Virus record (IMG/VR): IMGVR_UViG_3300020577_012183
Reading direction: 5' to 3' (one strand)
Source of the DNA: a virus
DNA: 11,267 nt
Part shown: positions 6,851 through 7,541 of the stretch, one piece after another
How positions within the stretch are numbered: position 1 is the stretch's first letter
Layout of the letters: each line of letters opens with the position of its first letter
Notes under the pieces: model-generated
Seen by the model: only the letters and a program-made list of their open reading frames with translations
Database searches by the model: none
What the model was told of the DNA's origin: nothing
Position numbers and translations under genes: made by a program

Positions 6851-7230
6851 GATTTTTCATCATTTTCAGGAAGATCAAGCAGTTTGATCGTTGAATAAAA
6901 ATCTGTTTGAACAGGTTTTTCAGCATAACTCGGACGTGTCATGATGCCCTTCCGAGGCATGAAATCAGATGCATCGAACACTACGGGCTCTTTCAAAACT
7001 GGAATGTATGGTGTATCAACAAAACCAGCGTCGGGCATCTCCGGAGACGTCGACCACAAGACTGAGACTTCTTCGTCGCTAATTGCAACGATCATCCCAA
7101 CGCCAGTTCCAGCAATAGTCGTGACAGAGTCACCAGGTGCAAACGGGCGGGCTTCATTCCCACGAAGACTGGATTCTGCCCACGTGATGCTATGTGCCCC
7201 CGCACTTTTTCTATTGTACGTCTTAAGCAT
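6847..7230 (-). CDS. Paralog F (127 aa from ATG 7230; track start 7233 is TTG)
   Basis: MLKTYNRK...RPFAPGDSVTTIAGTGVGMIVAISDEEVSVLWSTSP...DASDFMPRKGIMTRPSY. Confidence 0.6.
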   Translation of the reverse strand: MLKTYNRKSAGAHSITWAESSLRGNEARPFAPGDSVTTIAGTGVGMIVAISDEEVSVLWSTSPEMPDAGFVDTPYIPVLKEPVVFDASDFMPRKGIMTRPSYAEKPVQTDFYSTIKLLDLPENDEKS

Positions 7231-7541
7231 CAATCATCCACGTTCCATACATTGTCTGTCGTACCAACTAAGGCTTCAAGATCTCGAAAAATGTCTGCGT
7301 CAATTTCTGCTGCAATATCACGACTCAATTTAGCAGCGAGTTAGTCCATCCTGTTAGCATCATATCGCGACCATAACACGACGCCCATCAGGGCATCATG
7401 ACTAATTCCGATGAAGATGCCGTAGGAATCCTTGACATCAATGTGACAGACAATCTCACCAGGTTTGGTGGGCACCTCGCCGCGGTATGGTTGACCAATT
7501 GGTCTCAAAAGATTGAGTGGATGTTCTTGTAAGGTGTTCAT
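7230..7541 (-). pseudogene. Paralog G full-length frame (103 codons) interrupted by a single in-frame TAA at 7341-7343
   Basis: Hand translation in the same frame after the TAA gives LAAKLSRDIAAEIDADIFRDLEALVGTTDNVWNVDD. It ends at a TGA (7230-7232) that overlaps F's ATG (7228-7230) as TGATG, the same junction type seen between sibling genes. Confidence 0.35.
7341..7541 (-). CDS. Paralog G, N-terminal portion (66 aa) ending at in-frame TAA
   Basis: MNTLQEHPLNLLRPIGQPYRGEVPTKPGEIVCHIDVKDSYGIFIGISHDALMGVVLWSRYDANRMD*. ATGA overlap with H at 7538-7541. Confidence 0.5.
   Translation of the reverse strand: MNTLQEHPLNLLRPIGQPYRGEVPTKPGEIVCHIDVKDSYGIFIGISHDALMGVVLWSRYDANRMD

Follow-up and report, generated by a model that had tools for sequence, protein, structure and literature searches.

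An in-frame TAA at a domain boundary splits a small viral array gene that is intact in its relatives

Gene G belongs to a conserved array of short genes in an 11,267-nt stretch of DNA from an uncultivated T4-like phage (IMG/VR record IMGVR_UViG_3300020577_012183, referred to here as the window), and its reading frame is split by a single TAA. Very probably this TAA is a lineage-specific CAA>TAA nonsense mutation, and the C-terminal tail of the protein is no longer made in useful amounts. A nonsense mutation was one of the explanations offered by an earlier sequence-only reading of this DNA, and it fits all the data: the nearest relative carries CAA at the site and the orthologues are intact.

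The coordinates of G and of its neighbours are given in Table 1. Translation of the minus strand over window positions 7227-7541 gives MNTLQ...SRYDANRMD, a stop, LAAKLSRDIAAEIDADIFRDLEALVGTTDNVWNVDD and a second stop. The ATG lies at 7541 and is followed by 66 codons, the last of which encode SRYDANRMD. The sequence-only reading had described an ORF ending in RMD-TAA and 36 stop-free codons after it; retranslation agrees on the ending, and between 7340 and 7233 it yields the same peptide as was written then. The peptides LAAKLSR and DIAAEIDADIFR are contained in this frame. The restored full-length protein has 103 aa, a length that had been said to fit the sibling genes and that fits the orthologues as well (100-104 aa). 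An open frame beyond a stop is not rare by itself, since at least 31 open codons follow the stop in 6 of the 35 called genes of the source contig; homology, not openness of the frame, therefore decides the case of G.

Table 1. Features of the G locus and of related array genes in the window.
Feature	Position	Strand	Length	Description
G, retained part	7344..7541	(-)	66 codons	N-terminal small β-barrel (putatively SH3-like) module
G, premature TAA	7341..7343	(-)		Codon 67; C>T transition at window position 7343 (minus-strand sense)
G, former C-terminal tail	7233..7340	(-)	36 open codons	LAAKLSRDIAAEIDADIFRDLEALVGTTDNVWNVDD, now 3′ of the stop
G, original TGA of the full-length gene	7230..7232	(-)		1-base overlap with F ATG at 7230..7228 (TGATG)
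H	7538..7810	(-)	90 aa	Upstream neighbour of G; its TGA overlaps the G ATG (ATGA)
F	6847..7230	(-)	127 aa	β-module and segment homologous to T4-type MCP C-terminus, MCP 482-533
E	6548..6850	(-)	100 aa	Same β-module; tail without detectable MCP match (hhalign E 0.6)
D	5820..6551	(-)	243 aa	β-module and N-arm region of T4-type MCP, MCP 78-119
p8611	8114..8611	(-)	165 aa	β-module and MCP 296-349 ('K.RKLKA.W..E...DL' strand, helix start)

The TGA that closes the restored frame overlaps the ATG of F, and this had been held to be exactly the arrangement of the other junctions in the array. An overlap is present and the kind of coupling is the same, but the G/F junction is a 1-nt TGATG overlap, whereas the other tight junctions (H/G, F/E, E/D, D/C and 8994/8611) are 4-nt ATGA overlaps. 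The TGATG junction also occurs in the intact nearest relative, and G and F overlap by 8 nt in more distant relatives. Judged from the overlapping junction, F is probably coupled translationally to full-length G. The orthologue of the upstream neighbour H is P0005.

Five intact orthologues of G were found (P0002, 104 aa; P0006, P0008 and P0009, 100 aa each; P0010, 102 aa), and all of them are single continuous ORFs across the stop position, the stop being confined to the lineage of the window. The comparison of orthologous loci, proposed as a check at the first reading, bears out the claim that G is one gene split by a single TAA and that the downstream frame is its former C-terminus: the orthologues span both the stop site and the tail, and the intact gene is the ancestral state. 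The nearest relative (L006, 698 bp, the DNA of P0002) is 87.5% identical to the window at the nucleotide level. It reads GAC CAA CTC at the stop site and the window reads GAC TAA CTC. P0002 has Gln at this position, followed by LAAKLSREIATEIDAQIFRDLEALVGTTNDDVWNVDK, and the remaining orthologues carry S or T. These four (P0006, P0008, P0009 and P0010; 100-102 aa, 32-40% identity) were obtained by a HMMER scan of 1.84 billion representatives together with a profile search, and they are located in syntenic arrays (L013-L018). The orthologues have the tail pattern L..K[LM]...I..[EQ][IV]DA.I.[RQ]DL.A in common. The 66-aa product of G corresponds to P0001, the sole close match in a collection of 5.8 billion proteins, and the 90% cluster of P0001 includes the 104-aa P0002. 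A suggested echo between DADIF in the tail of G and SQDIF in D did not hold up, as the two motifs are not aligned with each other in the family alignments.

Other searches around the site returned little. Window positions 6500-8200 had no match by blastn among 50,697 phage records, exact-pattern scans of metagenome and viral contigs for intermediates around the stop gave no match, and a profile scan of metagenome contigs recovered only the P0009 lineage. The sole viral-contig match to restored G was a portal protein (L001, positions 2453-3763) of an unrelated viral contig, which contains the exact 8-mer RYDANRMD of G and loosely resembles G just before it (PGD...VLAYW). This was judged to be a chance word match because its E-value was relative to the candidates only.

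Substitution patterns were compared on the two sides of the stop. Between the window and the nearest relative, the 36 tail codons differ by 9 synonymous (Sd) and 7 nonsynonymous (Nd) changes and one in-frame 3-nt indel, giving a dN/dS of 0.18 (binomial p=0.004 against neutrality). For the same pair, dN/dS is 0.08 in the part of G before the stop, 0.09 in H and 0.18 in F, and among the intact lineages the tail ranges from 0.13 to 0.48. In deep comparisons pN is 0.33-0.40 for the tail versus 0.47-0.52 for the N-terminal module. The tail of G is, on the evidence of these comparisons, a real and formerly constrained coding sequence, and at depth the better-conserved half of the protein. Neither a natural end of the gene at the TAA nor an unconstrained tail, the two outcomes that the sequence-only reading had set against its own claim, was found.

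A structural model of an intact orthologue was made with AF2 from the 31-sequence family alignment (mean pLDDT 80); an earlier model from three sequences was unusable (pLDDT 44). Residues 1-60 are modelled at pLDDT 85-93 as a small five-stranded β-domain, with strands at 3-8, 12-14, 30-33, 40-46 and 52-59. A single long helix (63-93) follows the β-domain, and codon 67 falls at its start. The tail of G encodes a long amphipathic helix of ~35 aa. In this model the truncated G keeps the whole β-module (66 aa) and loses the helix. The module of G shows the motifs PGE.V...YG.....VLWS, and P27, G28, G41, W57 and S58 are invariant in the family alignments. The 103-aa protein had no Pfam match, and a PDB sequence search with the G profile gave only an insignificant match to Ivy (E 0.49). 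When the tail was aligned by hhalign with an alignment of three T4-type capsid proteins (MCPs), it matched MCP 323-355, part of the capsid protein's long helix, with an E-value of 1e-3, over the ~33-residue helix only. The score of 29.2 was reached by none of 200 column shuffles (mean 11.3, maximum 17.9). MCP positions are numbered on the protein of Flavobacterium phage immuto, in which the matched stretch begins AELTSLLSEYISMEIDLELLDMLI. G itself has neither the HK97 fold and length (~450-540 aa) of a full MCP nor a match reaching the Pfam gathering score.

In the course of events that we favour, one C>T transition turned the Gln codon CAA into TAA at codon 67, where the putatively SH3-like β-module is predicted to give way to the long C-terminal helix. 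Translation would end at the TAA and give a 66-aa protein consisting of the module only, while the 36 tail codons would persist as an untranslated remnant too young to have decayed. Ribosomes would then stop short of the TGATG, and the translational coupling of F would probably be weakened. The truncation may be tolerated or possibly advantageous. Ochre alleles and young pseudogenes in accessory genes of phages provide a close parallel. They too arise by a single transition in a gene that relatives keep intact, and the codons beyond the stop can still be recognised; where the next gene is coupled translationally, as F is thought likely to be to G, a polar effect on it is plausible. Unlike typical phage nonsense alleles, the stop in G lies at a domain boundary and a foldable 66-aa module may survive; unlike laboratory mutants, the allele appears to be fixed in a strain found in several metagenomes.

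The TAA allele was found in contigs from JGI 3300020576, SRR12486993, SRR33902036, SRR32380193 and SRR32380203, and at least six samples contributed contigs that carry it. Around the site these contigs show 100% identity over 451 nt (five assemblies), and over stretches of up to 11 kb their identity is 99.96-100%, with at most 4 base differences in 11 kb. All of these contigs are one near-clonal strain. The window differs from the JGI contig only by a SNP at 10728 and by three changes at 1435, 1436 and 1439; the latter fall within the ORF at 1017..1907 (+) and may be a small multi-base variant. Occurrence of the allele in several datasets indicates that the truncated G does not represent a transient, defective mutant, and this persistence leaves room for a functional state, either adaptive or involving read-through. 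No second lesion is present in the tail and the TGATG is preserved, which continued translation would also predict. This is uninformative on whether the tail is translated, because in so clonal a strain only ~0.04 changes are expected in 108 nt.

G shares its module with other members of the array. In G, F, E, D and p8611 it is marked by an N-terminal M.xL[KRQ]T[YH], PG[DE].V, an invariant G and [VI]LWS. The tails differ among the members, and several are pieces of T4-type MCP (Table 1). F aligned with MCP at an hhalign probability of 98% and by blastp at 9e-14, and tblastn with F reached the annotated MCPs of Flavobacterium phage immuto and Microcystis phage Mel-JY01 at ~1e-7. D matched Pfam Gp23 with an E-value of 2.5e-7, above the gathering score, and the PHROG 138 major head protein at 8.6e-7; its hhalign probability to MCP was 97%, and a PDB sequence search with D gave no match. 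For p8611 the hhalign probability was 82% (E 1e-5), and its orthologues show a weak Pfam Gp23 match. Eight other array members gave no match to MCP by hhalign (E 0.02-0.9). About 25 further short proteins (90-218 aa) were recovered by profile search, mostly of the D type with Pfam Gp23 matches; the D-type relatives are numerous and range from 107 to 218 aa. Capsid-segment members were also seen in L013-L015 and L019. The JGI annotation splits D into a 98-aa gene and a 126-aa antisense gene. Judging from its Pfam Gp23 match and its orthologues, the 243-aa ORF of D is clearly a real gene.

Gene content of the array varies. Between H and G, distant relatives carry an additional paralogue, X (101-112 aa), and they lack E between F and D; in the window, by contrast, E is present and X absent. 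The loci compared for X and E were L013 3253-3558, L014 9663-10001 and L015 5503-5814.

The array was compared with known structural proteins of T4. The tail of G, D, p8611 and F each align with one segment of the T4-type MCP gp23/gp24 (PF07068, PHROG 138). Unlike that protein, the array members, which are not capsid proteins, have 100-240 aa and carry a single MCP-like segment (35-55 aa) on a small β-barrel that is unrelated to MCP. Nor are they the pieces of a split capsid gene, whether by introns, inteins or collinear fragmentation, since the genomic order p8611, G, F, D is not collinear with MCP and the segments matched by p8611 and G share part of it; inspection by eye revealed no intein-like termini. 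Derivation of the β-module itself from MCP was also considered. One BLAST alignment (S-ShM2) extends into the module, and hhalign gives no support. The internal proteins IPI, IPII and IPIII of T4 resemble the array family in forming arrays of divergent small genes with a short conserved N-terminus. IPII and IPIII start with MKTYQEFIAE (read from NC_000866), and the family (F at 7230, D at 6551, p8611 at 8611 and relatives) starts with M.LKTY, MSLKTYDR or MLRTYEH. The capsid targeting sequence of the T4 proteins and the family start M.(S)L[KR]TY[DNE] have 3-4 residues in common (a K/R-T-Y core), which could be chance, and the T4 proteins, unlike the array family, are without a β-module or an MCP-like tail. 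A literature search found no description of a family combining such a β-module with capsid fragments. As a working guess, the array proteins attach to the capsid protein or imitate it while the capsid assembles, or interact with host factors. We regard as unlikely, though worth stating, the bolder proposal that they form a new protein class, each member showing one segment of the phage's own MCP (N-arm, strand plus helix, long helix or C-terminal strands) on a shared SH3-like module, and that the TAA in G is an adaptive removal of the helix or a low-level read-through switch.

Wherever the sequence of a relative extends far enough, the array lies downstream of a vault-like gene, named for its resemblance to the major vault protein. 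This gene encodes 886-892 aa with an MVP_shoulder match (E 1e-30) and SPFH/Band-7 domains, and it is directly upstream of the array (window 9334..11267 (-); L002 5548-8208, full length; L014 3204-7876; L019 4212-6890). In L014 a further Band_7 protein (642 aa) is encoded. Vault-like proteins are unusual in a phage-like context, and a search for this one in viral contigs found none. Beyond the low-coordinate end of the window, its contig (L010/L011, 1-5000 and 7600-9500) encodes an AAA ATPase, a 551-aa Cpn60/GroEL-type chaperonin, a TANGO2-family protein, an IF-1/eIF-1A-like S1-fold protein and a metallophosphatase. An 830-aa cellulase-family protein is encoded upstream of the vault-like gene (L002 1089-3581), and the relative L019 encodes a T4_Y16D family protein and an M24 peptidase. 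The gene content of these stretches suggests a large T4-related phage. The window itself contains, at 2860..3792 (+), a gene for a 310-aa glycine-rich protein (Pfam Gly_rich_2), followed by one for a 275-aa protein conserved in relatives.

Functional read-through or suppression, in which the TAA would be decoded in part, probably as Gln, by a near-cognate or suppressor tRNA and the strain would make both a 66-aa and a 103-aa form, is in our estimate quite unlikely. The intact tail and TGATG junction and the persistence of the allele in several datasets are compatible with it, and so is the Gln of the nearest orthologue, given that UAA and UAG, when decoded, usually receive Gln; Gln at the site is, however, simply what would be expected of a one-step CAA>TAA change, and the strain is too clonal for the absence of decay to carry meaning. 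The stop is followed by a C, one of the weaker contexts for termination in E. coli, but UAA is the least leaky stop in bacteria. Where read-through is programmed the stop would be conserved among relatives, and here it occurs in one near-clonal lineage only, with Q, S or T in the five orthologous lineages. A stimulatory RNA structure was also not found: RNA folding at and beyond the stop (136 nt) is weaker than in shuffled sequence (z=+2.4), and an Rfam search of the window gave no match. No tRNA gene was detected in the scanned DNA (L002-L006; of the 44-kb contig, itself an incomplete genome, ~30 kb was covered). TAA does work as a terminator here, for it closes four other called genes; one of these is the conserved vault-like gene (886 aa), with a gap of 124 nt behind it. 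Read-through or recoding, offered by the sequence-only reading beside the nonsense mutation, is disfavoured on these grounds. The A1 protein of Qβ arises by programmed read-through at UGA, and Lak and crAss-like phages recode TAG to Gln or TGA to Trp. G resembles these systems in having an in-frame stop followed by an open homologous frame and Gln as the ancestral residue. It differs from them in that the stop is TAA, occurs once, is not conserved and is a true terminator in neighbouring genes, and in that neither a suppressor tRNA nor a stimulatory structure was found in the scanned DNA.

The possibility of two genuine genes, G ending at the TAA and a separate 32-aa peptide starting from TTG at 7328, was given very little weight. 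A TTG-initiated ORF of this length does exist (7230..7328), but every orthologue is one continuous ORF, by eye no Shine-Dalgarno-like sequence lies at a useful distance 5′ of the TTG, and a search of the gap between G and F for promoter- or terminator-like sites found none.

Genome-wide reassignment of TAA to a sense codon can hardly be entertained. Stops in the source contig (L002, 20-kb stretch, 35 genes) are strongly skewed to TGA (28, with 5 TAA and 2 TAG), and some phages are known to recode the stops TAG and TGA; yet TAA ends four other genes including the MVP-like one, no suppressor tRNA was found in the scanned DNA, and the TAA of G is the only one noticed in frame among the array genes compared with relatives. 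Many of the L002 stops are ATGA start/stop overlaps inside arrays. A sequencing or assembly error, the remaining explanation offered at the first reading, is effectively excluded, since the same bases occur in five assemblies over 451 nt and in further ones over 11 kb, from JGI and at least four SRA runs.

With the nonsense mutation as the preferred reading, the annotation of G should mark it as truncated or disrupted, and the window offers no ground for suspecting an alternative genetic code. The stop itself is a routine young nonsense allele; the family that joins a β-module to capsid fragments is more unusual. A strain with a module-only G is a natural domain deletion for probing the role of the capsid-like helix. 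If the bolder proposal of a new class were true, proteins showing segments of the phage's own MCP might be assembly modulators or decoys for capsid-sensing host factors, and the fixed TAA in G would not be neutral decay.
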